A stretch of 64,000 nucleotides of DNA from an uncultured Clostridia bacterium (GCA_937920115.1 CALGVF010000082.1:9733-73732), one strand, 5' to 3'; shown: positions 12,506-50,430, numbered from the stretch's first letter. Notes: generated from the sequence alone by a model not told the origin. Numbers and translations: made by a program.

Positions 12506-12506
12506 C

Positions 12507-33421: not shown

Positions 33422-33446
33422 GGACGGACTTCCCGCCGTCCTTTTC
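33422..33446. terminator. Bidirectional terminator at the convergent junction
   Basis: GGACGG (33422-27) / CCGTCC (33436-41), flanked by T-runs on both strands. Confidence 0.6.
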
Positions 33447-33454
33447 TGTTGCCC

Positions 33455-33670: not shown

Positions 33671-33681
33671 TATCTCACCCC

Positions 33682-33816
33682 TTATAAATTCCCGTTTATG
33701 AGCATACCGAGGGCGAAAAAGCCCGCGATAAATGCCCATAACGCTAAGTTTATTAGTATTCCTTTTATGCTCGGAAATGGTTGCTTGTTGCCATAATCTA
33801 AGAATTTACGATCCAT
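33682..33816 (-). CDS. Small TM protein (44 aa), tentative
   Basis: MDRKFLDYGNKQPFPSIKGILINLALWAFIAGFFALGMLINGNL with RBS aaaggaag. Confidence 0.4.
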   Translation of the reverse strand: MDRKFLDYGNKQPFPSIKGILINLALWAFIAGFFALGMLINGNL

Positions 33817-33849
33817 TGCGTTCTACTTCCTTTATGTATATTTATGCAA

Positions 33850-34161
33850 TTAAAGCATTTCGCTTGCTGACGGAACGTAAAAATGGATTTCAGATTTTCC
33901 GTTCACTTCTCCGTCCATCCATTCGTTATTATAAGAGAGTTTAACCGTTGCGCCCCAACCGCTTTTATTTGCAACTTGTATCGCGTAATTCGGGTTAACT
34001 TTCTCGCCCGTTGCCCATACACCCTGATGTAATACAACATAGGGATATTGCTTTATAAAATCCATAAGGGATCTTTCGATATCATCTTCCGGAAATTTAA
34101 ACGTTTTGTTTTCGTCAATGTGTCCGAGTTCTAACAAGTTAATATCTTTAAATTCTGTCAT
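33850..34161 (-). CDS. Hypothetical protein (103 aa)
   Basis: First gene of cassette 1. RBS aaaggag lies downstream of the promoter at 34192-34220. Confidence 0.55.
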   Translation of the reverse strand: MTEFKDINLLELGHIDENKTFKFPEDDIERSLMDFIKQYPYVVLHQGVWATGEKVNPNYAIQVANKSGWGATVKLSYNNEWMDGEVNGKSEIHFYVPSASEML

Positions 34162-34188
34162 TAATATAAATCTCCTTTCTTTTATGGT

Positions 34189-34268
34189 TATATTATACCA
34201 TATATAGATAGCGTTGTCAAGTATTTAAACAAACTTTTTTAAAATATTTTTATCCTGAAACCGTCCGC
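34189..34268. repeat. 80-nt exact repeat (copy 1) carrying promoter and UP region
   Basis: Identical to 34999-35078. Confidence 0.85.
34192..34220 (-). promoter_or_regulatory. Leftward consensus promoter P1
   Basis: On the minus strand: TTGACA (34220-15), 17-nt spacer, TATAAT (34197-92). Lies within an 80-nt exact repeat. Confidence 0.7.
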
Positions 34269-34409
34269 CCGGGAACGGCTACCGAGTAGCACGGACCTCA
34301 TCGGACTGCCCGGAGATAAAGTGATTTTCTGTTGTGGATATTCTCCGATAGGCTACGCGCCGTAACGCGGATTCGGGGTGCGGGGTGACGGCTTTGCACG
34401 GCTATATAA

Positions 34410-34443
34410 GACAAAAGAAAAACGGAACGATTTCCGCTCCGTT
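34410..34443 (-). terminator. Leftward terminator
   Basis: Minus strand: AACGGA-loop-TCCGTT followed by TTTTCTTTTG. Confidence 0.6.
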
Positions 34444-34451
34444 TATTCTTG

Positions 34452-34682
34452 TTATTTGCCTTGTATGCCTTGCAAAAAGTCTTTAACCATTGCCAAGCAA
34501 CTATCTGCCGTTACGCAGATTTTAAACGAGTTGTTCTCGCAGGTGACATGTAAATATTCTTCGTCACCGTCAAAGATATAATCGCAATCATTAAAGCCTG
34601 CCTGCCTTGCTAATGGCTTTATAATATTGACTGTAAAGCGTCTTTTGCCCATGTAATTTTCGCCGTATAATGGTTTTCTCAT
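34452..34682 (-). CDS. Hypothetical protein (76 aa)
   Basis: Second gene of cassette 2. Terminator directly downstream. Confidence 0.5.
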   Translation of the reverse strand: MRKPLYGENYMGKRRFTVNIIKPLARQAGFNDCDYIFDGDEEYLHVTCENNSFKICVTADSCLAMVKDFLQGIQGK

Positions 34683-34684
34683 TG

Positions 34685-34957
34685 TTACGCCCTCCCTGAG
34701 TTTATTTTGTCCGCTGTTTCGCTTAATATCGAGCGGTATTCTCTTTCGCCGTCATCCGTCCCGCGATCTTCGTTTTCTTCGTCATAAACGGCACACAAGC
34801 CTAACATAGTCAACTCTGAATTGTTAAGTCCAAAACTTTCTTTTAACCATTCCGAAACGGCTACATCGCCATCTTCTTCAGTTTTTTGCTTTATGATTTC
34901 ATTAAATAGCCATAGCCTGAAATCATCAATCATGTTGTACGTTTTCTTTTCGTCCAT
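34685..34957 (-). CDS. Acidic hypothetical protein (90 aa)
   Basis: ATG at 34957 with RBS aaaggag. The track start at 34987 is too close to the TSS. Confidence 0.5.
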   Translation of the reverse strand: MDEKKTYNMIDDFRLWLFNEIIKQKTEEDGDVAVSEWLKESFGLNNSELTMLGLCAVYDEENEDRGTDDGEREYRSILSETADKINSGRA

Positions 34958-34998
34958 ATATAAATCTCCTTTGCAATGGCTTTCCATCCACTTGCAAG

Positions 34999-35078
34999 TA
35001 TATTATACCATATATAGATAGCGTTGTCAAGTATTTAAACAAACTTTTTTAAAATATTTTTATCCTGAAACCGTCCGC
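34999..35078. repeat. 80-nt exact repeat (copy 2)
   Basis: Identical to 34189-34268. Confidence 0.85.
35002..35030 (-). promoter_or_regulatory. Leftward consensus promoter P2
   Basis: TTGACA (35030-25), 17-nt spacer, TATAAT (35007-02). Confidence 0.7.
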
Positions 35079-35111
35079 AACCCGCCGCCCGGAGATTAGC
35101 ACGGACTATAT

Positions 35112-35141
35112 AGAAAAAAGGCGGAACGCAATGTCCCGTCC
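35112..35141 (-). terminator. Leftward terminator (imperfect stem)
   Basis: GGACG/CG(T)TCC stem with one bulge, followed by a TTTTTT run on the minus strand. Confidence 0.4.
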
Positions 35142-35169
35142 TTTTCCTTGATTGAGATTTATATATATG

Positions 35170-35376
35170 TTATGTGTGAGCGTAAATATTAAGGTTAAAA
35201 TCGTTTTTAGTGGATCGCGTTGTCTTTATTGCTTTATTGAAATAATCTATCGCGGATTGTTTATCTTCGGTGTACATCATACCATAGGCGACTGCCTTTG
35301 TTTGACGTTCAACGCCATAAAGTCCGCAATCATATTTTACAAGGCATATCGAGCCTTTTCTCGCTAATATAATCAT
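35170..35376 (-). CDS. Hypothetical protein (68 aa)
   Basis: Last gene of the four-gene cassette 3. Confidence 0.5.
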   Translation of the reverse strand: MIILARKGSICLVKYDCGLYGVERQTKAVAYGMMYTEDKQSAIDYFNKAIKTTRSTKNDFNLNIYAHT

Positions 35377-35379
35377 CGT

Positions 35380-35538
35380 TTATTCTCCCTTTGCTTGCTG
35401 TTCGAGCATTGTGTATTTTAAATCGTATAACTTCGTCAATTTAGCCGTTATTCTATCCTGTTCGACCTGATTGCCGTCCGCTTCTCTTCGGGCGATTAAA
35501 AGCCGTCCTATGGCTTCCTTTAACGCTTCTATCGTCAT
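35380..35538 (-). CDS. Small helical protein (52 aa), tentative
   Basis: MTIEALKEAIGRLLIARREADGNQ... with an ATGA overlap with the upstream gene. Confidence 0.4.
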   Translation of the reverse strand: MTIEALKEAIGRLLIARREADGNQVEQDRITAKLTKLYDLKYTMLEQQAKGE

Positions 35539-35840
35539 AATAAATTCTCCATAATCCATTCAATCGCCTGCTTTTCGGTATGTCCCGGGTGTTCTTTCGA
35601 CCATTGTTTGAGCCTTAACTCTTTTGTCTTTCTATCGATTGATCCGGCGGGAGTATCCGCAATAGCGATTTCAAAGCCGTTTAACGCTCTTTTCATTTTA
35701 CCATCTTCGAGTTCTTCGTATGGTATCAGACCGTAATATGTGTTATTGTTTTCCGTTCTGTTATGGTATTTCGGGTTCGTATCGGTTATCAATACGAACT
35801 CGCGATTCATTATATTTACATTTTTTGTTAAAACTTTCAT
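35535..35840 (-). CDS. Hypothetical protein (101 aa)
   Basis: ATG at 35840, 1 nt after the upstream stop. RBS ggtga. Confidence 0.5.
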   Translation of the reverse strand: MKVLTKNVNIMNREFVLITDTNPKYHNRTENNNTYYGLIPYEELEDGKMKRALNGFEIAIADTPAGSIDRKTKELRLKQWSKEHPGHTEKQAIEWIMENLL

Positions 35841-35841
35841 A

Positions 35842-36057
35842 TCATTCACCATCCTTTTCAACTTCAAATTTTGCCTCGGAAATCAGTAAATATAATTTCT
35901 TATACTTCTCTGCTTCTTTGAGATAAAATTGTTTTAAGCCGGAAACTTCGGCTTCTTCTGCGTACTTCTGAGCGCGTTCGATTATGGAATCCAACGTCGC
36001 CAAAATTTCGCCCGTCTGAGTACCATCAAGTTTTACTACTTTTACCAACCTTTCCAT
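35842..36057 (-). CDS. Hypothetical coiled-coil protein (71 aa)
   Basis: First gene of cassette 3. RBS aaaggag. Confidence 0.5.
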   Translation of the reverse strand: MERLVKVVKLDGTQTGEILATLDSIIERAQKYAEEAEVSGLKQFYLKEAEKYKKLYLLISEAKFEVEKDGE

Positions 36058-36099
36058 ATTATATAAATCTCCTTTGGCTCTCGCCCTTCAACTATCTAT

Positions 36100-36128
36100 A
36101 TTGCACCATATCTTGATAGCAATGTCAA
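36100..36128 (-). promoter_or_regulatory. Leftward promoter P3
   Basis: TTGACA (36128-23), 17-nt spacer, TGgTGCAAT (36108-00). Confidence 0.5.
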
Positions 36129-36204
36129 CTATTTTTCGCAACTTTTTGAAAGTATTTTTATTTTTTCTTCGCCCGGAGAACGGCTCGCAATTTTGCACGG
36201 CTAC

Positions 36205-36238
36205 CGGGATAAAAAAAGCGAGGATTTCTCCCCGCTTT
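36205..36238 (-). terminator. Leftward terminator
   Basis: AAGCGGGGAG...CCTCGCTT stem followed by TTTTTTT on the minus strand. Confidence 0.55.
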
Positions 36239-36241
36239 CGG

Positions 36242-36823
36242 TTAGTCGCATAAAAACTCCCACGAACTGATTTTTCTAAGTCCGTAACGCTTTAAATACG
36301 TTTGTAAGCGTTTTTCAAAACGTTCTTTGCATTTCTTCAACGCGACTATGTAACCCGCTCTATCGTCGGCAGAAATGACTTTGTGCGGCTTGTTTCCGTA
36401 ATACGTTGAATGTTTATATTCAGACATAAAGCCGACCGTATAAAAGCCGTTCAAGCCTGTTCCGAACAGATAGCCGTTTCTTGTTTCGTCCTCGGCTTGC
36501 TTTATCTGAACGTCTATCTGTTTCAGATTTTCCGAAATGAAAAACTTTTCAGATTTTCTCGCCCGTTCCGCAAGATCTGAGGCTTCGTTCATCTGTTCCT
36601 GACTTGAAACGCCACAGAATCCATAACCAAAACAAAACGATGTTTTTATCTTCGGCTTTTCAATTTCTACGATCTCCCCCGATGTTAATTCCGTTAGGCT
36701 ATCGAGATATGTATTTTTTAACCATTTAACATACTTGCGGCTGTTTTCGTCGTCGCCGTATTTTTTAATGTAACTGTTTTCAAGTGTTGCGTATAAGTCT
36801 TTTACTTCTTTTAAATTTTTCAT
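36242..36823 (-). CDS. Hypothetical protein (193 aa)
   Basis: ATG at 36823, 1 nt after the upstream stop. Confidence 0.5.
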   Translation of the reverse strand: MKNLKEVKDLYATLENSYIKKYGDDENSRKYVKWLKNTYLDSLTELTSGEIVEIEKPKIKTSFCFGYGFCGVSSQEQMNEASDLAERARKSEKFFISENLKQIDVQIKQAEDETRNGYLFGTGLNGFYTVGFMSEYKHSTYYGNKPHKVISADDRAGYIVALKKCKERFEKRLQTYLKRYGLRKISSWEFLCD

Positions 36824-36824
36824 A

Positions 36825-37169
36825 TTATTTCTCTCTTCTTGCCTCAATTTCTTTTTTCTTTTTAAGTAGTTTATTTGCGAGTTCTGAATACATACATTGT
36901 ATCTTTTCCGCATCTTCTATAAGGGTACTTATAGAACTCGGGACACCGTAAGTTCCTCTCATTTCAATCAACGGCTCAACGTGTTCGTCTATATCGAATG
37001 ACAGAGCAATCTCGCTCACTTGCACAAAAATGTCCGCATCTTTGTTAAGATATTCAACCAAATTCTCACCAGCGGGTGACCAGTTTTCTATCTCAATATC
37101 TTTATTCGTAACGTTAACATTCCATCCGCAATCTTTAATTACTTTTAAATATTCTTTGTATCCTTTCAT
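36825..37169 (-). CDS. Hypothetical protein (114 aa)
   Basis: ATG at 37169 with RBS agagagg. Confidence 0.5.
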   Translation of the reverse strand: MKGYKEYLKVIKDCGWNVNVTNKDIEIENWSPAGENLVEYLNKDADIFVQVSEIALSFDIDEHVEPLIEMRGTYGVPSSISTLIEDAEKIQCMYSELANKLLKKKKEIEARREK

Positions 37170-37219
37170 ATATACAACCTCTCTTTTTGTGAACGTTTCC
37201 CCGCTCACTTTCTGATTAT

Positions 37220-37248
37220 ATTATACTACATATAGATAGCATTGTCAA
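37220..37248 (-). promoter_or_regulatory. Leftward consensus promoter P4
   Basis: TTGACA (37248-43), 17-nt spacer, TATAAT (37225-20). Confidence 0.7.
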
Positions 37249-37440
37249 CCGTTTAAACAAACTTTTTAAAAAATTTTTTAATTATTTTTGACTTGCTCTG
37301 CGTCCGGAGATTTGCACGGCTTGCGTCTGTTCTGCTATGATGTGATATCCACAAGAAAAACTCCGGGCGGTGCTTTGTGGTTTTTCCGTTCGCTCTGTTC
37401 TGTCGTCGAAGTTCTTAGCACGGCTTACGGAAGGCAAAAA

Positions 37441-37474
37441 GAAAACCGCCCTTTCGAGCGGTTTTTCGATTTTA
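37441..37474 (-). terminator. Leftward terminator overlapping the stop codon
   Basis: AAACCGC/GCGGTTT stem followed by TCTTTTTG on the minus strand. Confidence 0.6.
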
Positions 37475-37903
37475 TCCGATTGCTATTATGTTTGATATTT
37501 TAATGTCAAAACAAGCCGTTTGACTGCTTTTTCTGTCGCTGACGAGTTTCTGTTCAACAAGTTCCGCCTTCGTCGTTTTTTCGCCATTTATCGTCCATTC
37601 AGAACGCGTTACCGTATGCGTTGTATAAACTCGCAACATATATTCGCCCGTCTTTTCCGACTGTAAGATATAATTAACGTCGCCGTCTTTCCATACCTTA
37701 CCATTAAGCCCGCCCGTTTCCTTGTTTACGTTCGCTTTCAGGTGCGAGTAATTTATTCCTAAGCGGTAAACGCCTTTACACTTTTTGACGATGTTTTTAT
37801 CTCTACCCGCCGCAAACGTATAAGGGTTAGCGTAATACTCTATGCAAACGAACGCGCCTTTTCTTTTGTCTTTTGCCTTTTCGATAACTTCTTGTAATTC
37901 CAT
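37472..37903 (-). CDS. Hypothetical protein (143 aa)
   Basis: Single-gene cassette 5. RBS agagagg. Confidence 0.55.
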   Translation of the reverse strand: MELQEVIEKAKDKRKGAFVCIEYYANPYTFAAGRDKNIVKKCKGVYRLGINYSHLKANVNKETGGLNGKVWKDGDVNYILQSEKTGEYMLRVYTTHTVTRSEWTINGEKTTKAELVEQKLVSDRKSSQTACFDIKISNIIAIG

Positions 37904-37943
37904 ATATATACCTCTCTTTTGCCTTTCGGCTTTATCTATATAT

Positions 37944-37972
37944 AGTATACTATATTTAGTTTATTTTGTCAA
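37944..37972 (-). promoter_or_regulatory. Leftward promoter P5
   Basis: TTGACA (37972-67), 17-nt spacer, TATACT (37949-44). Confidence 0.65.
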
Positions 37973-38041
37973 CTATTTTTCGCAAGTTTTTTAAAATATT
38001 TTTTATTGTCTGATAGCCGGATGTTTTGCACGGCTACCCGA

Positions 38042-38072
38042 AGATAAAAAGAAAACGCCCTTTCCGGGCGTT
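38042..38072 (-). terminator. Leftward terminator
   Basis: AACGCCC/GGGCGTT stem followed by TTCTTTTTAT on the minus strand. Confidence 0.65.
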
Positions 38073-38077
38073 CGCTT

Positions 38078-38683
38078 TTAATGTAATTTAAAGTAAACCG
38101 CTTGCCCCTCTCTCAGGCTCCAACAACTTTTGCAGAACTTGCAAGAGCCTTGACAAGGGATCGCAAACTCGGGGATGTTATTTTCGGCGGGATCTTTTAA
38201 CTCTACATATGCAACCGGGAAATTATGCGGATTGTCGACTTTAAACGATTTTCCCCAACCACTGAAAACGATATGCAAATTATCGGGAATGTTTCCGCCG
38301 TTCGCGATAAACTCGTTGACGATTTCAAATTTTTTAGTAAATGCTAAAAATTTTGTATCGGGGGAATTTTTCGCGATGTTTATCATCATTTCAAAAAACT
38401 TTTTATTGACGATATCGCCCGAAGAAAACCAACGAAAGAAACGATAAACAATATCGCCGTTATTGATCCATTCGGTAACGTCTTTTTCGAGTTTTTCGGG
38501 GTTGTTTATAAACTCGTTCAGGTTGTTTTTTAAAGATTGTTGAACGTTACCATACATCCAATTACCTTTGCAAGCATAGCAATTTTTTTTACAAGGCGCA
38601 TCGCATCTACAAGTTACGATCGCGGGAAGATTAAACGAAGGGATTTTGTCCCCGAGTTTACTGTTACTTAAAGAAATATGCAT
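38078..38683 (-). CDS. GP88-like Cys-rich protein (tentative family call)
   Basis: 201 aa from the ATG at 38683 (RBS ggtga). N-terminus SLSNSKLG...FNLPAIVTCRCDAPCKKNCYACKG. C-terminus CQGSCKFCKSC. Confidence 0.5.
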   Translation of the reverse strand: MHISLSNSKLGDKIPSFNLPAIVTCRCDAPCKKNCYACKGNWMYGNVQQSLKNNLNEFINNPEKLEKDVTEWINNGDIVYRFFRWFSSGDIVNKKFFEMMINIAKNSPDTKFLAFTKKFEIVNEFIANGGNIPDNLHIVFSGWGKSFKVDNPHNFPVAYVELKDPAENNIPEFAIPCQGSCKFCKSCWSLREGQAVYFKLH

Positions 38684-38739
38684 CTCAATCACCATTGCAA
38701 GCCGTTCGCATCGGCTCGCCCTTTCTTTTTTCTGATTAT

Positions 38740-38768
38740 ATTATACTATATATTGATAACAATATCAA
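38740..38768 (-). promoter_or_regulatory. Leftward promoter P6
   Basis: TTGATA (38768-63), 17-nt spacer, TATAAT (38745-40). Confidence 0.6.
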
Positions 38769-38987
38769 CTATTTTTAACAACTTTTTTAAATTATTTTTT
38801 ATATTTTTGTCGCGTATTTGCCCGGGTATACGCGTATATAGGCACGGGCAACATATATCTTTTATGAACGCCCGCCCCGCCCCTCGCCGAAGTTCCACAA
38901 GCAAAGCAAAGCAGGGTAGGGGTGGTGGGCGAAAGGTATTTTGCAGGAGTGTGTTAAGTGAATCATCCCTCCCGCGTCCAACCCAAC

Positions 38988-39064
38988 CTTAGGCAGTTTT
39001 TAAATTTCCCGTAGCGACCTTAGGCAGTTTTTGAGATAATCCAAACCAAACTTAGGCAGTTTTT
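38988..39064 (+). promoter_or_regulatory. Three iterons CTTAGGCAGTTTTT
   Basis: Exact 14-mers at 38988-39001, 39019-39032 and 39051-39064, spaced 31 and 32 bp. Confidence 0.75.
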
Positions 39065-39719: not shown

Positions 39720-40544
39720 ATGCAGAATGAAATCAAAGAAGAGGTAAAGAAACCCGAATCCGAAGCAGACAAAGAACTTAGCGATTTGTTTGTGAAAGAC
39801 GAGGAGGTGACCGCTACCGAAAACAATGCAGATACCCTTACTGCTGGGCAGGAAACCGACGGAACGAAAGAGGACATCGAAGTCAAAACCGAAGAGCCGT
39901 CCGTCGATATGTCGGCTGAAGAAAAAAGCGGCGCGGAAAATTTCGTAAAAACCGAAAACTTATCGCAAAAAGACACAGCGCAGACTGATGCGCCGGAAGT
40001 CGAAAAAGCGATATTCACGCAGTCACAGGTCAATAAATTGGCAGGCAAGGCAAGAGAAGAAGGCAGAGCGTCGGCTTTGAAAGAATTGTTTGCGAGATAC
40101 GGTGTGGCTGACGAGAACGAATTGAACGGAATATTCGGCAAAGGACAAACGTATGACGATCTGAACGAAGAATATGCCGCGCAGGGCAATTCGGTCAGAG
40201 AAGTCAGAGCCGAAAACGCTTTACTCAGAACGAACATAGTTCCCGAACGTTGGGACGACGTTAAAGCGATTCTTGGCACGAAAGGTCTTGAGGTTTCTCA
40301 GGAAAACATTACCGCAGAATTGGCGACGCATCCGGAATGGCGAGGAGCGAGTGTGGCAGTTGAATCGGAAAAGAAACCGTTCAGCCCGGAGTTGGGCGAG
40401 CAACTGAAGAACACGCCGACGCAGAAACCGGACGCGACGGAAAGCAAGATGTCGCCGCTCAGACGGTTAGGCACTGAAAACGGCGAAAACGAATCTCCCG
40501 AAGTTTCCGAAGAGAAGAAAATTCTTTCGATGTTCGGGCTGTAA
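39720..40544 (+). CDS. Scaffolding protein (DUF4355-like)
   Basis: 274 aa, acidic and helical. FTQSQVNKLAGKAREEGR is typical of phage scaffolds. Lies immediately upstream of the capsid gene. Strong RBS aaggagagagg. Confidence 0.65.
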   Translation: MQNEIKEEVKKPESEADKELSDLFVKDEEVTATENNADTLTAGQETDGTKEDIEVKTEEPSVDMSAEEKSGAENFVKTENLSQKDTAQTDAPEVEKAIFTQSQVNKLAGKAREEGRASALKELFARYGVADENELNGIFGKGQTYDDLNEEYAAQGNSVREVRAENALLRTNIVPERWDDVKAILGTKGLEVSQENITAELATHPEWRGASVAVESEKKPFSPELGEQLKNTPTQKPDATESKMSPLRRLGTENGENESPEVSEEKKILSMFGL

Positions 40545-40625
40545 AAACTTACGATTCGAACGAACCGAACTGTAAAAATTTTACGCAATCTAATTCTGTG
40601 GATTATCCAAAGGAGAAAGTGAATT

Positions 40626-41042
40626 ATGACTATCGATGAGGCTAAGAAAGCATTTGACGAAATGAGAGCGCAGGGCGCGGACGATAATGCGATACTCGGA
40701 ACGCTGTACAGAATGTTCCAAGACGACAAAATCGACGTAGAGCAACTCGGCGCGCTCGTAAACGTACTCGGATATGAACTTACGGACGAATTCAAGCAGA
40801 TGACGCCCGAAGATCAAAAGACGAAAGGTTGGGAAGCCGATGACGAAAGCGAAAAAGCGGAAGGCGTGACCGACGAAGAAGTCGAAAAAGCGAAAGAGTA
40901 CGGCGACGATCCTGACGAAAGGAGCGGTAACGCATCCGACGAAAAATCGGACGAAACGGATGCCGAATCCGATAAAAAGGACGAGGAAGAATCCGACGAG
41001 GAAGCGACTAAAAAGGCGAGGAAAATATTCGGTTTGGACTAA
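40626..41042 (+). CDS. Highly acidic small head-module protein
   Basis: 138 aa with RBS aaaggag. Asp/Glu-rich C-terminal half ending in KIFGLD. Confidence 0.55.
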   Translation: MTIDEAKKAFDEMRAQGADDNAILGTLYRMFQDDKIDVEQLGALVNVLGYELTDEFKQMTPEDQKTKGWEADDESEKAEGVTDEEVEKAKEYGDDPDERSGNASDEKSDETDAESDKKDEEESDEEATKKARKIFGLD

Positions 41043-41069
41043 AAATTTATTTTTTTAGGAGAAACCTAT

Positions 41070-42281
41070 ATGGCTGGTAACAATATAGAACTTATTACCA
41101 AGTATAGCACCAAAGCGTTCGACGAAGTTTACAAACAGGAATCGGTTACGGCGGCTTTGGACGTCCCCAACGCGTTTATGGAATTCACGGGTGCAAAGAC
41201 CGTTAAAATCAGAAAATTCCAGACGGGCGGACTTAACAGTTATTCGAGAAACAACAACGCGGGCGGTTACGGCGACACGAGAATTGATCAGCCTTCGGGC
41301 GATTATTATGGTTCTGCGGGATTCGGTTATAAGCAGACGAGCGCGAAAGTCGAATGGGAAGAAAGAACCCTTAAGATGGACAGAGCGGCGGCTATTCCGA
41401 TTGAGTATTTCGATAACGAGGAAGCGGGCGGCGACGTAGTATCGCTTACGGCATCCGAATTTATGAGAACCGTTATGGTCCCCGAAAACGACGCGTACAC
41501 GCTTTCGACGATTGCGGCGAATGCGGGTAAGGTTGTATCCGAGGCAATCGCAGACAATAAAGCCCTTGCGGCATTAAACAGCGCGTTCCTGTATTTCGAG
41601 GAAAACGAAGTTCCCGCAAACGATCAGGTTATCTTCGCGTCGCCGGCATTCATGAAGAAACTTCGTGAAACGACCGAAATGACGAGATTCCTCGGCGAGG
41701 ATGTAAAAGACAGAAAAGTCAATTACAAAATCACGAATTACGAAGGTAGAGATATTATCACGGTATCTCCGCAGAGGCTTCATACGGGCTTCAAGGCTTA
41801 CGAAGGCGGTTATGGATGGGCAAGCGGTTCTGCGGCTATCAACTTCCTTGCGGTAGCGAAATCCGCAGTCGTACACGTTAAAAAATTCGAGCAGTTGAAA
41901 ATCGTAAGCGGCGACATGAACCTTGCCGGTAACGGATTCGACGGTTACACGATTTATGCACGTATGTATTACGATGTGTTTGTACTCGACAACAAGAAAT
42001 ACGGTATTTACGCGAGCATTTCGGCGACTGCTGAAACCGCAGACGTCCCTATGGTAAAACTTGAAATCGAAACGGACACCGCGCATAAGATTACCAAGAT
42101 TACCACTACTCCTCCGAACACGCTTTGCTTTGTAGCGACGGGAACTAAGTCCGGTACTTCCTTGACTTCGCCTGTTCTTGCAAAAGTTGGCGATACTGTT
42201 GCTCAGGATGCTAAGTATTACGCAATTACTTCCGATAAGACCATTATCAGTAACGAAGTAAGCCCCAATCCTAAGGGTTAA
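41070..42281 (+). CDS. Major capsid protein with C-terminal Ig-like extension
   Basis: 403 aa, follows the scaffold, RBS taggag, terminator follows. The fold was not verifiable by eye. Confidence 0.7.
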   Translation: MAGNNIELITKYSTKAFDEVYKQESVTAALDVPNAFMEFTGAKTVKIRKFQTGGLNSYSRNNNAGGYGDTRIDQPSGDYYGSAGFGYKQTSAKVEWEERTLKMDRAAAIPIEYFDNEEAGGDVVSLTASEFMRTVMVPENDAYTLSTIAANAGKVVSEAIADNKALAALNSAFLYFEENEVPANDQVIFASPAFMKKLRETTEMTRFLGEDVKDRKVNYKITNYEGRDIITVSPQRLHTGFKAYEGGYGWASGSAAINFLAVAKSAVVHVKKFEQLKIVSGDMNLAGNGFDGYTIYARMYYDVFVLDNKKYGIYASISATAETADVPMVKLEIETDTAHKITKITTTPPNTLCFVATGTKSGTSLTSPVLAKVGDTVAQDAKYYAITSDKTIISNEVSPNPKG

Positions 42282-42315
42282 TTGCGTAACTCGGCGAACA
42301 ATTTAATCTAACACA

Positions 42316-42353
42316 AAAGGCTATCATTCCGAAAAGGTTTGGTAGCCTTTTTG
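42316..42353 (+). terminator. Rho-independent terminator after the capsid gene
   Basis: AAAGGCTA (42316-23) / TAGCCTTT (42343-50) followed by TTTG. Confidence 0.65.
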
Positions 42354-42383
42354 AAATATTTTTAAAATCTTTTTAGAAAACAC

Positions 42384-42412
42384 TTGACAAGATTTTAAGG
42401 TTGTGATAATAT
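42384..42412 (+). promoter_or_regulatory. Promoter of the ncRNA-tRNA unit
   Basis: TTGACA (42384-89), 17-nt spacer, TGaTAATAT (42404-12). Confidence 0.6.
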
Positions 42413-42419
42413 ATGCTTA

Positions 42420-43040
42420 GGAAATGGATTTTCGCATACATTATTCCGTTTCCCATTCCCCCTTACTCGCGCCGTCGCGTTCTTGATTTACTGATTGCAA
42501 GTTTTTTGCCCTTTGCTTAAATTTTTCTTGCGATACATTCGTTTATAACAGTAATTCTCCATTATTTAAAACCTTTCTGACGCGGCGGCGTGACGATATG
42601 CTGTATATGCTCGGAACAACGGGCGATACGGCACCGGCAGGCAGTTAAAGGGTTCTGCCTTTATTCGAGTTCAAAATTGCGTAGGGGAACTCGGAAAACA
42701 AAACCCTTTTTACGGAAGATTACTCAATCGGCAAAGAGAGGTCCTAAATGGGCGAATAGGGTCGGCACCTATATCTTCCGCCAAAGGTGTGTAGTTCCAC
42801 CTGATGTTACTCGGCTAAAATCGGGTACGGTACGGCTTTGGCTGTTCGTCTTGCTCCGTTAAGGCAGACAGAACGGGTTTTGAAAAGTTTTCCTCGGCAG
42901 AGCAGAGCGTAATGCCGACTTGCGGCGCGCAATAAAACAGAAATGCAAGTTGTCATTGGTTGGCTATTGTTGGTGTGGAGTAATTTCCCACACAAACGAT
43001 CGTGAATCCTCGGTTAAGGGTTGCAACCGAAAAACTTTTA
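42420..43040 (+). ncRNA. Large structured non-coding RNA candidate (ROOL/GOLLD-like context); ends approximate
   Basis: No credible ORF. GC-richer than the flanks, with at least 8 hand-pairable helices. Has its own promoter and a tRNA directly downstream. Confidence 0.5.
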
Positions 43041-43044
43041 TCAT

Positions 43045-43121
43045 CGCGGAATAGAGAAACCCGGAATCTCGCATGGCTCATAACCATGAAATTGCTGGTT
43101 CAAATCCGGCTTCCGCAACCA
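43045..43121 (+). tRNA. tRNA-Met (anticodon CAT) with initiator-like features; encoded CCA
   Basis: Full cloverleaf. Acceptor CGCGGAA/TTCCGCA (C1xA72 mismatch). D arm GAGA-AACCCGGAA-TCTC (A11:U24). Anticodon arm CATGG-CTCATAA-CCATG. T arm GCTGG-TTCAAAT-CCGGC. ACCA end. Confidence 0.85.
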
Positions 43122-43171
43122 TTCACAGTATCTTTGGCATAAACAAATTTTGACTCCGACATCAGGCAGGA

Positions 43172-43197
43172 AATCTCGTTGTGAAACGGGATTTTTT
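43172..43197 (+). terminator. Rho-independent terminator after the tRNA
   Basis: ATCTCGTT (43172-79) / AACGGGAT (43184-91) followed by TTTTTT. Confidence 0.65.
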
Positions 43198-43226
43198 GCT
43201 TTTGTGAAAAATTTTCCTAAAAACGC

Positions 43227-43255
43227 TTGCAAAACTGATAATTTTGTTGTATTAT
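43227..43255 (+). promoter_or_regulatory. Promoter
   Basis: TTGCAA (43227-32), 17-nt spacer, TATTAT (43250-55). Confidence 0.5.
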
Positions 43256-43290
43256 GATAATGAATAAAAATATTTTCAGGCGGTGTGGAT

Positions 43291-44112
43291 ATGGCAGACA
43301 CGAAAAAGCCAAACGTTGGCGAGGCTATATTAGGAAAAAACAAACAAGCGATCGGATCGTATCAGGAAGCCCCGGGCGGCGGAACGCCTTTGAAAGCGGG
43401 CGAGAAAGCACCGTCGAAAGAATGGGTTGCGGCGAATCGCAAAATGCAACCTCGAGATGACGATGGAAAGTTTACGTATAACGCGGCGAACGCGAAGCCT
43501 TTGGAATACGGACCGTCGAGAGGAAAGACAGTGCCGCCTTTTTTGCGTGGCGTTAAACTGACATATGTTGAAAAATCCGACGTAATTATGATCGAAGAGG
43601 GCAAAAGAGTCCTTGCGGGTATCGATATGAGCGTTGAGGAATTAATAAACAATTACAGGAATTATTCCGAACAGGAAGGCGGGTTCAAAAATCTTACGGG
43701 AGAAACAAAAGGCAAAACCGGTGCATACTCACAGAAAGAAAAAGCCGCAAAAGAAATAGGTTATGAGGGTCTGTTAAAGGCTCTTACGATTCAGGATATT
43801 ACCGAGGGATTTAAAGAGAATAAACAAGCCGGCAAATTGATCGGGGAATTTAAATATGTTAAAAAGGATGAAAATAAGCCCGAATCTAAGCAAGAAGTTG
43901 CGCCCGAAGCCCCGAAATCCGGCGTTACGAGCGAAGAAAAAGAACTCGCAAGTACAGATCCTGTTAAACTTTTTGCTACGAGCGATAACGCAAAGGCATT
44001 AAGACAGAAAGCCGAAGAAAAGGGCTTGAAATTATCTGGTAAAGCGGTAGCGAAAGCGATTGCCGATGGATATACGTGGGACGATTTGAATAAAGTTGTT
44101 GACGAGGCGTAA
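43291..44112 (+). CDS. Head-module protein, candidate internal/ejected protein
   Basis: 273 aa from the ATG at 43291. Lys/Glu-rich. DDDGKFTYN resembles the N-terminal HDKEGKFT motif of the next protein. Confidence 0.5.
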   Translation: MADTKKPNVGEAILGKNKQAIGSYQEAPGGGTPLKAGEKAPSKEWVAANRKMQPRDDDGKFTYNAANAKPLEYGPSRGKTVPPFLRGVKLTYVEKSDVIMIEEGKRVLAGIDMSVEELINNYRNYSEQEGGFKNLTGETKGKTGAYSQKEKAAKEIGYEGLLKALTIQDITEGFKENKQAGKLIGEFKYVKKDENKPESKQEVAPEAPKSGVTSEEKELASTDPVKLFATSDNAKALRQKAEEKGLKLSGKAVAKAIADGYTWDDLNKVVDEA

Positions 44113-44114
44113 TT

Positions 44115-45563
44115 ATGGTTACGAAATCAGACAACACAAAAGGTAATCCTTATCACGATAAAGAGGGGAAGTTTACAAAAAAAGAGGGTGCTTCTGCGGG
44201 TGGTGCGTCTATTGAATCTGAAAGCAGTGTTTCTACAAAGAAACTATCGTTGTCCGATATAGTAATTACACCGCAGGAAGTCGGGAAATTAAATCTTTTT
44301 TCTTCTGAAGATGACGATGCTGATTTTTGGGATAAGGTAGATACATATTCCGAAACAAAAACTGATTCTGCGAAAGAGGATTTGAAAACGTCTGAGAAAA
44401 CAGAACAGACAACGATGTCTGCAAATCCCGATGTTGTAACGGTTATTAATGGTCTTGATTCTAAGACTGTTTATGATACTGTATTAAAAGATTCGACATT
44501 GGATCCCGATAAAATTAAGAATGCATCGGAATCCGAATTAAAAGAACTTTTGCAAGCGCAGTCGGTTCTTGCCGAAAAGAAAAACGATAAAACGCTTGAA
44601 GAAGCAAATAATAAATACTTTTATAATTTATGGCAATATCCTGTAAAGCCGTCAGATTATCTGGATAAAAAGGATAAAATTCAGGCTAAAAAGGATTATT
44701 TCCTTTTCGATTATAAAGGTTCTGATAAACAAGAAAAACTTGCCTATCTTGATTCTTTTGTGGAATCGGGAGAAAAATACGCAAAAGCAAAAGAGATATA
44801 CGATTCCAAATATAAATCTGCGATTGAGATTGTAGATAAATTTGGGAACGGAATATACAGTTTTGAGCGTAAAGAGTCTGCAATATATATTGGTGCAAAG
44901 AATTATCCTGTCTTTAACGAGATAGCCGAAAGTAAGAAGATTTTCGGACCAAATTCCGAAACGGTGATAACAGCGTTAAAAAATTCAAATCCTACTGCAT
45001 TAAACGCGGTGATTGGATATACGGGTAGTTATTCAAGCATCAACGAGCCTTTAAGAGGTGTAACTTATTTCGGCAATAAAACAAGCAGAGAAGAGTTTAT
45101 TAAAAACGTTGAGGGAATGACTGAAGCCATAGAATTATCCACATACGATTTTGATTATTGGGTTCAGCGCGGGACGCATAGCGTAGTTGACGAAGAGAAC
45201 GGAGTGGATATAAACTCGAGCATGACGAGTGCCGAATTAAATGGCTTAGTCGGGAAAGAATTCGTACAGCGTTCGTTTTTCTCTGCGGGGGCGGCTAAAA
45301 ACACCGGGATGCCGACTCGTCCGATAATACTGAATGTTTATTGTCCGAAAGGCACAAAGGGTTTGTATGTAGAATCAATTTCGCAGTTTGCGGGCGAAAA
45401 TGAAATGATTCTCCAAAGGGGATATACGTACAAGATAACAAAAGCAGAAAAGGGTTCAAACGGAAGAATCTTCGTAGATTGCGAAGTTGTATTAGGCTCT
45501 GATAAAGATAAATATACTCACGAGCAACTTGTGGATATAGCAAATAAATACATAAAGGAGTAA
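44115..45563 (+). CDS. Protein with C-terminal ADP-ribosyltransferase (R-S-E, exoenzyme-type) domain
   Basis: N-terminal GNPYHDKEGKFT motif. ART motifs: YTGSYSSINEPLRG (Arg), FFSAG (Ser region), GENEMILQRG (ExE). Confidence 0.7.
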   Translation: MVTKSDNTKGNPYHDKEGKFTKKEGASAGGASIESESSVSTKKLSLSDIVITPQEVGKLNLFSSEDDDADFWDKVDTYSETKTDSAKEDLKTSEKTEQTTMSANPDVVTVINGLDSKTVYDTVLKDSTLDPDKIKNASESELKELLQAQSVLAEKKNDKTLEEANNKYFYNLWQYPVKPSDYLDKKDKIQAKKDYFLFDYKGSDKQEKLAYLDSFVESGEKYAKAKEIYDSKYKSAIEIVDKFGNGIYSFERKESAIYIGAKNYPVFNEIAESKKIFGPNSETVITALKNSNPTALNAVIGYTGSYSSINEPLRGVTYFGNKTSREEFIKNVEGMTEAIELSTYDFDYWVQRGTHSVVDEENGVDINSSMTSAELNGLVGKEFVQRSFFSAGAAKNTGMPTRPIILNVYCPKGTKGLYVESISQFAGENEMILQRGYTYKITKAEKGSNGRIFVDCEVVLGSDKDKYTHEQLVDIANKYIKE

Positions 45564-45571
45564 AAGGGAGA

Positions 45572-45769
45572 ATGAATAAAGACAAAGATATTATGCGCGT
45601 AGGCTTTACAAGCAAAGACCTTGTTTGTAAGAAATGCAGGTATGGAGCAATTACCGATCCTGAGAATTCGTTTTGCGCGTTTTATGATGTGAAACCGTAT
45701 GAAATTCGTTGTCAAGGTAAAGATTGTCCGCATTTTGAATCGTTTGAAAAATATGCAAAACAAAAATAA
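45572..45769 (+). CDS. Small zinc-ribbon protein
   Basis: 65 aa with CKKCRYG...CQGKDCPHF. Confidence 0.5.
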   Translation: MNKDKDIMRVGFTSKDLVCKKCRYGAITDPENSFCAFYDVKPYEIRCQGKDCPHFESFEKYAKQK

Positions 45770-45794
45770 ATAAACACAAAGGGGAATGTAAAAT

Positions 45795-46565
45795 ATGTTA
45801 GGTGCGGTAATAGGTGACGTTGTTGGCTCGCGTTATGAGTTTAATAACATTAAAACTAAAGATTTTGAATTGTTTGGAAAGGGCTGTTATGCAACGGACG
45901 ATACGGTTATGACCTGCGCCGTTGCGGAAGTGCTGATAAATAAAAAACAAAACGACAAAGATTATATCGTCGATACTTTTAAAAAGTGGGGCAGGAGATA
46001 TCCCCACGCGGGATATGGCGGTCGCTTTGGATGTTGGGTATTAGGTAATGAGCGCGAGCCGTATAACAGTTACGGAAACGGCGCGGCTATGCGAGTTTCG
46101 GCGGTTGGTTGGATTGCTAAATCCGAAAAAGAAGTGAAAGATTTATCGCGGGAAGTTACGGAAGTTACTCATAATCATCCCGAGGGAATAAAGGGTGCTG
46201 AAGTTGTCGCAATGTGTATTTATTACGCAAAGCAAGGCAAAGATAAAGCGTTTATAAGGGCATATGTTGAGAAATGTTATAATCTTGATTTTAATTATGA
46301 GGAATTGAGAAAAACATATACTCACGCAGAGGAGATTTGCCAAAACACCGTTCCGCAAGCGATTTTTTGTTTTTTGATATCGGATAGTTTTGAAGATTGT
46401 TTAAGGACTACTATTTCAATCGGTGGTGATTGTGATACTACAGCCGCCATCAGTTGTGCGATTGCCGAAGCCTATTATGGTAGTTGCGGATGTTGTGAAA
46501 AAGAAGTTCTTAATTATTTGACTCCCGATATGAAGAATATATTAAAAAAAGTAAAAACGAGGTAA
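45795..46565 (+). CDS. ADP-ribosylglycohydrolase (ARH/DraG family)
   Basis: GAVIGDVVGSRYEF, TDDTVMT, YGNGAAMRVSAVG, THNHPEGIKGA and GGDCDTTAAISCAIAEAYYG match the family signature. Confidence 0.85.
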   Translation: MLGAVIGDVVGSRYEFNNIKTKDFELFGKGCYATDDTVMTCAVAEVLINKKQNDKDYIVDTFKKWGRRYPHAGYGGRFGCWVLGNEREPYNSYGNGAAMRVSAVGWIAKSEKEVKDLSREVTEVTHNHPEGIKGAEVVAMCIYYAKQGKDKAFIRAYVEKCYNLDFNYEELRKTYTHAEEICQNTVPQAIFCFLISDSFEDCLRTTISIGGDCDTTAAISCAIAEAYYGSCGCCEKEVLNYLTPDMKNILKKVKTR

Positions 46566-46567
46566 TT

Positions 46568-46711
46568 ATGGATAGCGGAAATAACATAGAATTAACCACA
46601 AAACAAATCACGGGCAAGAAGAAAATTGATAAAGTTTTCAAGAAAAAGCCTGTCGTAAAAGAATTAAGTCAGTCCGAAATCAATAAAATGTTTGGAATTA
46701 AGGAGAAATAA
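46568..46711 (+). CDS. Small basic protein (47 aa) ending in KMFGIKEK, tentative
   Basis: ATG 2 nt after the upstream stop. Below the track cutoff. Confidence 0.4.
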   Translation: MDSGNNIELTTKQITGKKKIDKVFKKKPVVKELSQSEINKMFGIKEK

Positions 46712-46715
46712 AAAT

Positions 46716-47039
46716 ATGAAAAAGCAGGAAATGTTGGACTATATCGATAAACTTATCGAGGACGAAATCGAAGCGATTGACGGGTATCATAAAGGCATTG
46801 AAAAAATGCAGGATTCTCCGCGTATAGTCGACTTGTTCGGCAGAATTTATAACGACGAAACAAGACATTTAACTGATTTGCAGGATCTTAAGAAAGCCGT
46901 TGAACAGCATGAAGAAGTTATGCAGTCTATCGAAATGCAGAGAATGTTCGGACTCAAAGATTGCGGACCTGTCTGCGTGTATGGACCGCAGGGCGATGGA
47001 ATAGTTATTACCGACGAAGATAAAGAAAAGAAGGAATAA
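46716..47039 (+). CDS. Encapsulated-ferritin-like (EncFtn-type half-ferritin) protein
   Basis: 107 aa from the ATG at 46716 (RBS aaggag). EIEAIDGY (Glu, then Tyr at +7) and DETRH (ExxH) have spacing within 1 residue of the EncFtn ferroxidase ligands. Confidence 0.6.
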   Translation: MKKQEMLDYIDKLIEDEIEAIDGYHKGIEKMQDSPRIVDLFGRIYNDETRHLTDLQDLKKAVEQHEEVMQSIEMQRMFGLKDCGPVCVYGPQGDGIVITDEDKEKKE

Positions 47040-48346: not shown

Positions 48347-49369
48347 ATGAAAAAACGTAGTTTGTTTTTTGCTTCAATGGCAATGTTATTCGCTTTAGTC
48401 GGGAACTGCATATTCTTAACCGGTTCTCCGAGAGTTGCTCACGCTGAGGATAACGTTCCGCCGGCAGAAGAAAGCATAATCGAATCCGAATCCGAATCTG
48501 AGTCTGCGGGCGAACCGGAAAGCATTTCGGAGAGCGAGGGCGAAGTTGTAGAACTTCCCTGCAAAGTAATAGTCACTGCCGCTCAGTACGGAGATATTAT
48601 GATCGATAAAGAATCGGGCAACGTCGGCGATATCGTAACCGTTTATGCGAAACCGTATTCGTTATTTAAATTAAAGAGTATAACCGTGAACGGCACCGCG
48701 CTCGTTGCGAATGCCGATGGAATTTATACGTTTGCAATGATAGAGGGCGAAAATAAAGTATCTGCCGAATTCGAGATAAGTCAATCCGAAGTTTCGTATA
48801 TTTTGGGGCTTATCGAGGACGCTAAGAACGGCAATTTTGAAGATATATTCTCGTTAAAAAATTTATTAACGCTTATAAGTTGGCTGATTTCGTTGTTTAT
48901 GGGTAGCGGGTTCTGCATTACGTTGCTGAAATCCAAAAAGATAAAAGCTCAAACAACGGAAGAAATTTCTGCGGCTGTCGACGCGGCTACCAAGAGCGAA
49001 GTTGCGAAAGGTATATCCGCGTTCTTGAGCGAGAAGTTCGGACCGTCGTTTGACGCGCTCAGTACGAGTATAAACGACATTTCCGAAACGTGTCAGTCAA
49101 TGGCTCGTTGTATGGTTTTAGGGCAGGAAAACACACCTGAAGCCCGTCTTGCTATTATACAGGAACTTTCGTCCAAATCTAAAAAAGCAGAGAGTTTGGC
49201 AGAGGAAGTAAAGAAGATTGTCCACGCAGAGATGGCTGACGCAGAAAAAGCGAAACAGGATAAACTTGATTTAATTGAAGAACTCGAAGCAAAGAATCAG
49301 GCAATCGGAACGGACACCTCGGCAGAAGTCAAAACGGACGATAAACCCGATTTAGAAGGAAGATATTGA
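48347..49369 (+). CDS. Secreted/membrane protein with signal peptide, SE-rich linker and internal TM
   Basis: 340 aa. N-terminal signal (FFASMAMLFALVGNCIFL...AHA) and TM LLTLISWLISLFMGSGFCITLL. Confidence 0.55.
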   Translation: MKKRSLFFASMAMLFALVGNCIFLTGSPRVAHAEDNVPPAEESIIESESESESAGEPESISESEGEVVELPCKVIVTAAQYGDIMIDKESGNVGDIVTVYAKPYSLFKLKSITVNGTALVANADGIYTFAMIEGENKVSAEFEISQSEVSYILGLIEDAKNGNFEDIFSLKNLLTLISWLISLFMGSGFCITLLKSKKIKAQTTEEISAAVDAATKSEVAKGISAFLSEKFGPSFDALSTSINDISETCQSMARCMVLGQENTPEARLAIIQELSSKSKKAESLAEEVKKIVHAEMADAEKAKQDKLDLIEELEAKNQAIGTDTSAEVKTDDKPDLEGRY

Positions 49370-49383: not shown

Positions 49384-50430
49384 ATGGGTGGAATTGAGAA
49401 AAACGACGGAAAAGACCAAAGCGCGGTATTTGTCGGCAAGAAAAAGAAGTTCGCCGAAAAACTAAGAGATAACATACAGAAATTATTGATAGTCGCGGTA
49501 TCTGCCGTGTACATTTTTCAAGGCTTCTTCTCTTTATCGAAAAGAGATACGACGGTTTTGGAAATCCTCGGCAGTATCGGATTATCGATAATTATCGGTG
49601 TCGTGATATCCGCAAGTATGAACTCAATGGGCATAAAAGACGGGCGCAGAAGCGAATTATTTGAAGCGTCTATGAAAGCCTACGGAGAAGCGAAATCCAA
49701 ATCCACAAAATACTTCGATAAACTTCAGGCTTGGTGCGAGTACAAAAACTCAATCGATCTCGAAGCAAAGAAGAAAGATATCGTATTGACGGCAGGATTG
49801 TCGTGGAAAGGCTTTAAATTCGGGTATTACGACGAACACCCTGAAAGACTATCGGAAGAGCAGAAAAAGCAGTTAGAACGCGCGAAATCGGCTAAAATAG
49901 AAAAGTTATATTCGGGCGATCTTCTGAGCGACAGCAACAAAGATAAGTCGCTGTTCGGCAAGCCGTTCGGCAGATTCGGCAAATCGGAAAAAGATTATTC
50001 GTTGATTGTAAATACGTCCGATATGGTTTACAAAGTAGCAATCGGCATAGTCTGTGGTTTATATATGCTCAAGCCGATATTTTCCGAGCAGATTCTTGCG
50101 AATATGATATGGAACACATTGCAGATACTGTTGTGGTTGGCGTTCGGGTCTATGAAGTACGCAAACGCGAAATACTTTATGGAGTATGAATACAGACAAT
50201 CGCACGTTATTCAAAAAACAGAATGTATAAACGAATTCTTTATAACAATGGAGAACCGTCCCGAAGTTATCGAGCAGTTTGATGATGAAGTCGAAATCGA
50301 TAAATACATTTTGGAATTCATAAACGAAAAGGAGAGAGCAAGAAATGCCGAACAATCAGCAGACACCGCCGGCAGTAGTGACGGAAACACCGAATCAGAT
50401 TCCGATCCAACCGTCGAAAATGACGGTTAA
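49384..50430 (+). CDS. Multi-pass membrane protein
   Basis: 348 aa with several hydrophobic helices. RBS gagagg. Confidence 0.55.
   Translation: MGGIEKNDGKDQSAVFVGKKKKFAEKLRDNIQKLLIVAVSAVYIFQGFFSLSKRDTTVLEILGSIGLSIIIGVVISASMNSMGIKDGRRSELFEASMKAYGEAKSKSTKYFDKLQAWCEYKNSIDLEAKKKDIVLTAGLSWKGFKFGYYDEHPERLSEEQKKQLERAKSAKIEKLYSGDLLSDSNKDKSLFGKPFGRFGKSEKDYSLIVNTSDMVYKVAIGIVCGLYMLKPIFSEQILANMIWNTLQILLWLAFGSMKYANAKYFMEYEYRQSHVIQKTECINEFFITMENRPEVIEQFDDEVEIDKYILEFINEKERARNAEQSADTAGSSDGNTESDSDPTVENDG

Follow-up and report, generated by a model that had tools for sequence, protein, structure and literature searches.

The scaffolding protein (SP) of phage 80alpha and the SaPI1 protein CpmB share a C-terminal helix-and-hook of 16-21 residues with an RIIK motif, which is interchangeable between them, and both tails bind an HK97-fold capsid protein beside its N-arm helix (PMC5644958). 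A parallel between phage scaffolds and encapsulin cargo has also been discussed, with the equivalence of the two posed as an open question (bioRxiv 10.1101/2025.06.18.659913). Here we analysed a stretch of 64,000 nucleotides assigned to an uncultured Clostridia bacterium (GCA_937920115.1, CALGVF010000082.1:9733-73732), in the following called the window, which holds most of the genome of an uncultured gut tailed phage whose relatives are metagenomic contigs of 75-80 kb. An earlier note, made from the sequence alone, had pointed to a recurrent (K/R/S)-(M/I)-F-G-(L/I) motif in four proteins of the head module, namely the scaffold, an acidic protein of 138 amino acids (aa), a 47-aa lysine-rich protein and a ferritin-like protein, and had proposed a candidate capsid-targeting peptide. 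Our analysis suggests that the motif belongs to a C-terminal tail which, with a probability that we put at roughly 60%, is a scaffold-type helix-and-hook docking on the capsid protein and reused by accessory proteins that co-assemble.

All four proteins carry the motif exactly where the earlier note had placed it (Table 1), and its view that the conservation lies in the protein and not in a DNA repeat also held: the copies are encoded by different codons and none of the sites falls within a DNA repeat, which rules out such a repeat as the cause of the recurrence. The motif is followed by 0-3 residues in the scaffold, the acidic protein and the 47-aa protein, and by 27 in the ferritin-like protein. 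Within the 111 open reading frames (ORFs) of the window (19,991 aa), the pattern [MI]FG[LI] occurs five times, and four of these occurrences lie within the last 35 residues, compared to 0.15 expected; none of 1000 composition-preserving shuffles reached four. This pattern was defined post hoc, and the data from diverged loci therefore weigh more than the window test. A somewhat broader pattern, applied to the 480 ORFs of 16 diverged related loci, gave 26 C-terminal matches versus approximately two expected from the internal rate (13-fold), 24 of which were on the head-module strand. The motif is enriched at C-termini in the window and in the diverged loci alike, and its recurrence in head-module proteins is real and beyond chance. 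A compositional coincidence in short K/E-rich tails without shared function might be argued from a core of only four residues and from a pattern defined after its sighting, but it is effectively refuted by the shuffles, the 13-fold enrichment, the frequency of the tail in the scaffold family (81% of 150 scaffolds) and its co-variation within genomes (both described below), leaving this explanation with a practically negligible probability.

Two further sites were rejected as copies of the motif. The portal contains KKLFG, which is N-terminal, and the N-termini of related portals lack LFG. The internal KKIFGP of the ADP-ribosyltransferase (ART), mentioned in the earlier note, does exist; owing to its internal position and the missing hydrophobic residue after the Gly, we treat it as unrelated to the tail. 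In the relative L002 (13166-14617) the ART gene is split in two ORFs exactly at ...ESKKIF, the site of this KKIFGP, which would be a frameshift or an assembly error.

Searching 1.8 billion cluster representatives, we obtained 362 scaffold homologs at E<=1e-3; the GenBank phage collection contains none of this family. The scaffold comprises an acidic N-terminal region, a central domain (approximately aa 96-210), which is the best conserved part of the protein, a variable linker and the C-terminal tail. F272 and G273 are invariant in the scaffold alignment within an otherwise hypervariable C-terminal third. Considering the best 150 of the 362 homologs, all from clusters at <=50% identity, 121 (81%) showed, within the final 12 residues, the tail pattern [hydrophobic/K/R]-[FYWM]-[GNSKRDA]-[hydrophobic], whereas internal windows of 12 residues did so in 4% of cases. 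When the sequences are aligned at the aromatic residue, the consensus reads E-E-E-x-A-M-K-L-F-G-L followed by 0-7 residues, in which Phe or Tyr and the flanking hydrophobics are the constant part and Gly is present in about two-thirds. Met-for-Phe variants (AMGL and IMGI) were found in the scaffolds of RG-TP1 and MT835475, and the motif is absent from the distant A006 and TP21-L scaffolds. Judged by these alignments, the motif is the signature C-terminal tail of a large, metagenome-only scaffold family.

The second conserved carrier is the acidic protein. A protein of 62-138 aa is encoded between the scaffold and major capsid protein (MCP) genes in nearly all related loci, with L030 as the exception, and in these orthologs an acidic linker connects a small helical domain at the N-terminus to the same tail. 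The acidic 138-aa protein is a conserved second 'mini-scaffold', an assembly protein rather than cargo. In relatives from IMG/VR (39-92% MCP identity), the motif is kept at the C-termini of both orthologs, with the scaffold and the mini-scaffold ending, respectively, in ..RAMKLFGFNK and ..RAMKLFGLDK (L007), ..EAMKMFGLKK and ..EAKKLFGL (L010), ..EAMRKFGI and ..TFKKFGIAE (L009), and ..VRNLFGM and ..AAKLFGFNSNK (L005). A second scan added more distant loci at 27-35% scaffold identity. Aligning the mini-scaffolds of 16 genomes left the motif Phe (F135) as the sole invariant column. For the mini-scaffold of the window, AlphaFold2 predicted a confident helical domain (aa 3-67), an acidic disordered stretch (73-122) and a tail formed by a helix (124-134) with FGLD as coil, the latter at a predicted local distance difference test score (pLDDT) of 56-63 in a monomer model; A127, A131, I134, F135 and L137 line one helix face, with hydrophobics at i, i+4, i+7 and i+8. 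Searches for homology to CpmB, phi29 gp7 or others gave no Pfam, PHROG or PDB fold match for this protein.

The strongest evidence that the tails of different proteins share one specific partner comes from their co-variation within genomes. The two tails of one genome read FPSLTKK and FPSLKK in L025, FGGL and FGGY in L029 (IKKIFGGL, AKAIFGGY), FGVEF and FGVNF in L028, FGLTGFVD and FGLPGFVN in L023, and EKMKRIFGI and EKMKKVFGI in L027, where a 59-aa gene located 3' of the MCP gene provides the second carrier. In 17 genomes, pairs from the same genome agree at 5.53 of 8 post-Phe positions compared to 4.42 in permuted pairings, a similarity reached by one of 20,000 permutations (p≈5e-5), and the four positions before the Phe behave likewise (7 of 20,000). 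At synonymous sites the paired tails differ, e.g., Ser AGT versus TCC in L025 or Phe TTC versus TTT, which excludes recent gene conversion and indicates that the similarity is kept by protein-level selection. The motif is hence common to non-homologous carriers, and its within-genome co-variation is not a product of gene conversion. The simplest explanation is selection for one specific partner common to the tails, such that the tails of different proteins would recognise a partner that co-evolves with them.

This joint drift also bears on the proposal that the tail serves as a degron read by an AAA+ protease of the host, or as a phage-protease site, by which scaffold-like proteins are removed after assembly. 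The tail is exposed, C-terminal and hydrophobic-tipped behind a disordered linker, like ssrA-type tags, and scaffolds must leave before DNA packaging; yet a degron for a conserved host protease should not drift jointly in paralogs across phage lineages. In addition, we found no prohead protease among the searched head-region proteins, and the mature capsid protein of the distantly related Listeria phage A006 lacks Met1 only, both of which fit an intact scaffold that binds and later leaves. We consider a degron very improbable.

Where on the capsid protein the tail binds may be indicated by the 47-aa protein. Its residues 3-33 (46574-46666) are a copy of the MCP N-arm, followed by a Lys-rich linker and the tail SEINKMFGIKEK (46673-46708). 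Compared with residues 2-30 of its own MCP, the BLASTP E-value is 3e-6, with MDSGNNIELTTKQ...IDKVFKKKPVV aligned to MAGNNIELITKYS...FDEVYKQESVT, and the ortholog in L016 (16527-16682) matches its own MCP (11254-11343) better than in the window (E=2e-8). Within a genome, the N-arm-like part follows the lineage-specific residues of the MCP, reading NNIEL in both proteins of the window and NSIGL in both of L016, and the codons of the N-arm copy differ from those of the MCP. Tail-bearing orthologs are present in L002, L004, L005, L006, L007, L008, L016 and L018. The 47-aa protein is a chimera of capsid N-arm copy and tail. Because it joins only these two parts, as the 80alpha tail packs on the N-arm, an interaction between N-arm and tail is suggested. 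The protein could be an assembly regulator, a decoy promoting scaffold release or an internal DNA-binding protein.

Docking on the capsid protein would proceed as follows. A flexible, acidic linker would be followed by a short helix of amphipathic character (A/I-x-x-L/M-F) and then by a hook of Gly and a hydrophobic residue, in many cases with Lys behind it. During procapsid assembly this tail of the scaffold would dock on the capsid protein from the inside, at a site that is probably the N-arm or close to it. Copied onto other late proteins, the tail would let these bind the same site and be drawn into the assembling shell, the recipients being the mini-scaffold in almost every relative, the basic 47-aa N-arm mimic and, in some genomes, the half-ferritin and others. 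The acidic mini-scaffold would be expelled together with the scaffold, and basic or enzymatic carriers might stay inside. We infer both the capsid protein as partner and the incorporation of the carriers into the procapsid, the former from the analogy with 80alpha and from the N-arm mimic.

The co-variation indicates a shared specific partner, not which one, and the tail might instead bind the scaffold central domain, the portal or a host chaperone, with the carriers gathered by piggy-backing. It is established that the internal proteins and Alt of T4 are directed to the scaffolding core rather than the shell, and the central domain is, as described, the best conserved part of the scaffold. 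Self-binding, however, would need reconciling with a strictly terminal tail behind a long flexible linker, and the pairing of the tail with a capsid N-arm copy in the 47-aa protein points to the capsid protein. To our knowledge, in every scaffold with structural data (P22, phi29, 80alpha) the C-terminus contacts the coat protein. Another common partner is thus unlikely in our view.

Several points weigh against docking on the capsid protein. The Gly is replaced by K, N, R, D or S in about one-third of the scaffold family, so that the exact FG of the motif is not essential; neither scaffold nor MCP had a relative of known structure by sequence among PDB chains; the MFGL of the ferritin-like protein lies 27 residues from the end, and orthologs at 59-62% identity read LFAM; the ART and the other large effectors encoded in the region are devoid of the C-terminal tail; and no isolate of this lineage is present in the GenBank phage collection, and hence no virion proteome. 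A last point is a resemblance to the membrane-targeting sequence of E. coli MinD, KGFLKRLFGG (PMC5471200), which is strikingly like AMKLFGL and like the IKKIFGGL and AKAIFGGY of L029. The tail could accordingly be a MinD-type terminal amphipathic helix of the form basic-hydrophobic-F-G that holds the scaffold and its companions at the membrane, where the heads would assemble. In all of these sequences, an acidic stretch precedes basic residues and a hydrophobic face, and two predicted membrane proteins (48347-49369 and 49384-50430) are encoded in the same late cluster. Unlike in MinD, the context here is a capsid assembly module, and a lipid as partner would not call for co-variation by lineage: generic binding to lipid gives no reason to expect shared post-Phe residues such as PSL(T)KK, GG[LY] and L[TP]GFV[DN] with diverged synonymous codons, and the K, N or D in place of Gly as well as the KFGI tails weaken the hydrophobic face. 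We know of no described membrane-anchored scaffold and judge membrane targeting to be improbable.

Besides the scaffold, the mini-scaffold and the N-arm mimic, the motif is found in the ferritin-like protein, which is 107 aa long when read from its likely true start, the ATG at 46716; the AAGGAG site that precedes this ATG lies within the final codons of the 47-aa ORF. AlphaFold2 modelled helices 3-30, 35-63 and 65-77 (mean pLDDT 77.7, 90-97 over residues 1-60), i.e., a two-helix hairpin and a short third helix that ends at MFGL, followed by a low-confidence, Cys-containing tail. A helix that stops at the Phe and continues as coil was predicted in both modelled carriers, with low confidence and in monomer models. 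Encapsulated ferritins head the list of PDB fold matches (P. furiosus 5n5e, R. rubrum 5da5, H. ochraceum 5n5f and M. xanthus EncB 7s5c), all at E>=0.37 for a simple fold; template modelling (TM) scores by target are 0.60-0.87 for 5n5e, 5da5 and 7s5c. Sequence matches were to designed di-iron helical bundles and to ExxH helices of bacterioferritins. Only five homolog clusters were found. In six ferritin-like sequences E17, Y24, E48 and H51 (E48-x-x-H51) are invariant, which we take to correspond to the ferroxidase residues E32, Y39, E62 and H65 of R. rubrum EncFtn. Among curated families, Pfam Ferritin (16.6-17.6 bits, cut-off 24.5) and DUF2383 (19.2-19.4, cut-off 30.8) both remained below their thresholds. 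Judging from the model, the label 'EncFtn-like' used in the earlier note is a fair structural description, which the half-ferritin fold and the residues fit, and not a demonstrated family membership, as neither the fold matches nor the curated families reached significance. Behind the motif, the protein has a conserved C..C...DGIV(I/F)T segment, and of the four motif copies this one is the weakest.

Downstream of the MCP gene, the tail sits on different small proteins in different genomes, e.g., on proteins of 82 aa and 68 aa in L007, of 51-57 aa in L005, L008, L016 and L018, and on a protein of 338 aa in L025. The 65-aa Cys-rich protein of the window carries no tail, and its homolog in L008 (15245-15472, E=9e-5) ends in KKAFEMMGVK (..EEKKAFEMMGVK), which would be an example of tail gain or loss. 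The region from the MCP to a conserved 286-aa protein (43285-47039 in the window, 5475-9209 in L005, 11802-15472 in L008) varies in content: in the window it encodes the ART together with an ADP-ribosylglycohydrolase (ARH), in L005 a Zeta-toxin kinase along with a Macro domain, and in L008 a divergent ART. From its gene content we read it as an effector cassette that fits head-packaged, injected effectors, and enzymes encoded in head modules were inferred to be packaged and injected (PMC9503650). The large variable proteins share an N-terminal motif, GNP(Y/N)H(D/K)xxG(K/R/Q)F(T/S/A), which reads, for instance, TKGNPYHDKEGKFT in the ART, with L005 showing TKGNPNHDAQGRFS and L007 TEGNRYHDEDGKFA; in the 275-aa family the version is QPRD.DG(K/Q)FTYN, and D..GKFT occurs in the window only in the ART and the adjacent 275-aa protein. 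This N-terminal motif may give the big effectors a signal of their own for packaging or injection.

For the suggestion of the earlier note that the tail co-packages cargo, these results have mixed consequences. The tail is C-terminal, conserved and shared with the scaffold as supposed; since the large effectors lack it and have a different N-terminal motif, its role as a general cargo signal is only partly right. To view all carriers as cargo is not tenable, with the scaffold and the mini-scaffold being assembly proteins and the 47-aa protein no obvious cargo. A broader proposal, a modular natural cargo loading in which proteins that acquire the tail are built into the procapsid, including an EncFtn-type enzyme, and which would connect scaffolds with encapsulins, remains tentative and rather doubtful.

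The genes around these carriers are listed in Table 1. The head module is split by a reverse-strand block (33244-39000) that lies between the portal with a 253-aa protein and the scaffold with the MCP, and a 205-aa Cys-rich protein is encoded within this block (38078-38695). 3' of the non-coding gap behind the MCP gene, the order is 275-aa protein, ART, 65-aa protein, ARH, 47-aa protein, ferritin-like protein and conserved 286-aa protein; in the relative L001, a 375-aa TnpB-like ORF (12137-13264, MKAFKTRIYPT...) is inserted in the corresponding gap. Long late-gene ORFs 3' of the head genes are read as putative tail genes. The placement of the two predicted membrane proteins in the late structural cluster is unusual; one has a signal-peptide-like N-terminus, the other several hydrophobic segments, and neither gave a PHROG match. 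The distant relatives of the MCP are the capsid proteins of Listeria A006 and Bacillus TP21-L (<30% identity). Matches to them stop near aa 315-325, and the MCP continues C-terminally for about 100 residues more than these relatives; this extension (42030-42281, aa ~320-403) may be an added surface or decoration domain. Megablast over the module found no close relatives among sequenced phages, and tblastn no matches there to the scaffold and the ferritin-like protein. Scanning a genome collection for hosts gave only two matches, both metagenome-assembled, one in an uncultured Bacilli bin and one on a 4.4-kb contig binned as Parabacteroides, the latter assignment being doubtful.

Table 1 Coordinates of the motif sites, their carriers and neighbouring genes (window positions unless a relative is named).
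Feature	Position	Strand	Remarks
Large terminase	10204-11760		phrog_3717 and phrog_2
Portal	30713-32395		phrog_533
Scaffolding protein, 274 aa	39720..40544	+	weak match to PHROG 2303 (head scaffolding)
Scaffold tail	40509-40541 (motif 40530-40541)		ends EEKKILSMFGL; motif codons atgttcgggctg
Acidic 138-aa mini-scaffold	40626..41042	+	orthologs between scaffold and MCP genes
Mini-scaffold tail	40998-41039 (motif 41025-41036)		ends KKARKIFGLD; motif codons atattcggtttg
MCP, 403 aa, HK97-type	41070..42281	+	phrog_422, E=8e-55
MCP N-arm	41073-41159		~aa 2-30
tRNA-Met (CAT)	43045-43121		inside 1-kb non-coding gap 42282-43284, 3' of MCP gene
N-terminal effector motif, 275-aa protein	43453-43488		
ART	44115-45563		PF03496
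N-terminal effector motif, ART	44136-44189		aa 8-25
65-aa protein	45572-45769		Cys-rich, zinc-ribbon-like
ARH	45795-46565		PF03747
47-aa lysine-rich protein	46568..46711	+	MCP N-arm copy and tail
Motif of 47-aa protein	46688-46699		ends EINKMFGIKEK; motif codons atgtttggaatt
Half-ferritin-like protein, 107 aa	46716..47039	+	resembles encapsulated ferritin
MFGL of ferritin-like protein	46944-46955		EMQRMFGLKD, 27 residues before end; motif codons atgttcggactc
Large variable proteins with the N-terminal effector motif, L007	12312-13511, 14757-15401		
Large variable proteins with the N-terminal effector motif, L005	6244-7350, 7544-8608		

If the tail does bind the capsid protein, the capsid-binding determinant of a large, metagenome-only scaffold family would be defined, a conserved two-scaffold assembly system revealed, and the equivalence of phage scaffolds and encapsulin cargo provided with a concrete, testable example; in addition, a natural tag of 10-15 residues would be at hand for loading proteins into phage capsids. 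If the cargo-loading proposal were also true, this lineage would preserve, or would have re-invented, the link between scaffolds and encapsulin peptides, biochemical cargo would be present in its procapsids or virions, and the N-arm mimic with its tail would represent a new kind of assembly regulator or internal protein.

A described precedent is that of 80alpha SP and SaPI1 CpmB, where otherwise unrelated proteins likewise carry one C-terminal tail and CpmB is a small protein with an N-terminal helical domain, the same layout as in the model of our mini-scaffold. The differences are that the sequence here is hydrophobic-F-G-hydrophobic and not RIIK, that the scaffold has no PDB sequence match and the N-domain of the mini-scaffold no PDB fold match, which makes this an analogy and not a family membership, and that both proteins are phage-encoded without a satellite, with up to four carriers per genome. 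Encapsulin cargo-loading peptides are presumably similar in being short, C-terminal and located behind a flexible linker, with small hydrophobics around a Gly and a basic residue nearby; they send proteins inside an HK97-fold shell, and one carrier here models as an EncFtn-type half-ferritin. Unlike in encapsulins, the shell here belongs to a tailed phage with portal and terminase genes, the main carriers are scaffolds, and the motif of the ferritin-like protein is internal and only partly conserved.

Two further comparisons concern T4 and nested scaffold genes. The capsid-targeting sequence of T4 is a short, transferable peptide that brings internal proteins and the ADP-ribosyltransferase Alt into the prohead during scaffold-dependent assembly, and it is N-terminal, targets the scaffolding core and is cut off by the prohead protease; here, in contrast, the peptide is C-terminal, the searched head-region proteins included no protease, and the ART is without the tail. 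In lambda C/Nu3, herpesvirus UL26/UL26.5 and P2 gpO, head proteins share the capsid-binding C-terminus of the scaffold via nested in-frame starts, whereas the carriers described here are separate genes with different codons and not one DNA stretch. Overall, the docking of scaffold tails on capsid proteins and one case of tail sharing, that of 80alpha and SaPI1, were already known, whereas a phage lineage that would use such a tail as a reusable address label on two to four unrelated proteins per genome had not been described before. New are the scaffold family with its motif, the phage-encoded mini-scaffold, the multiple modular carriers, the N-arm mimic and a possible EncFtn-type passenger.

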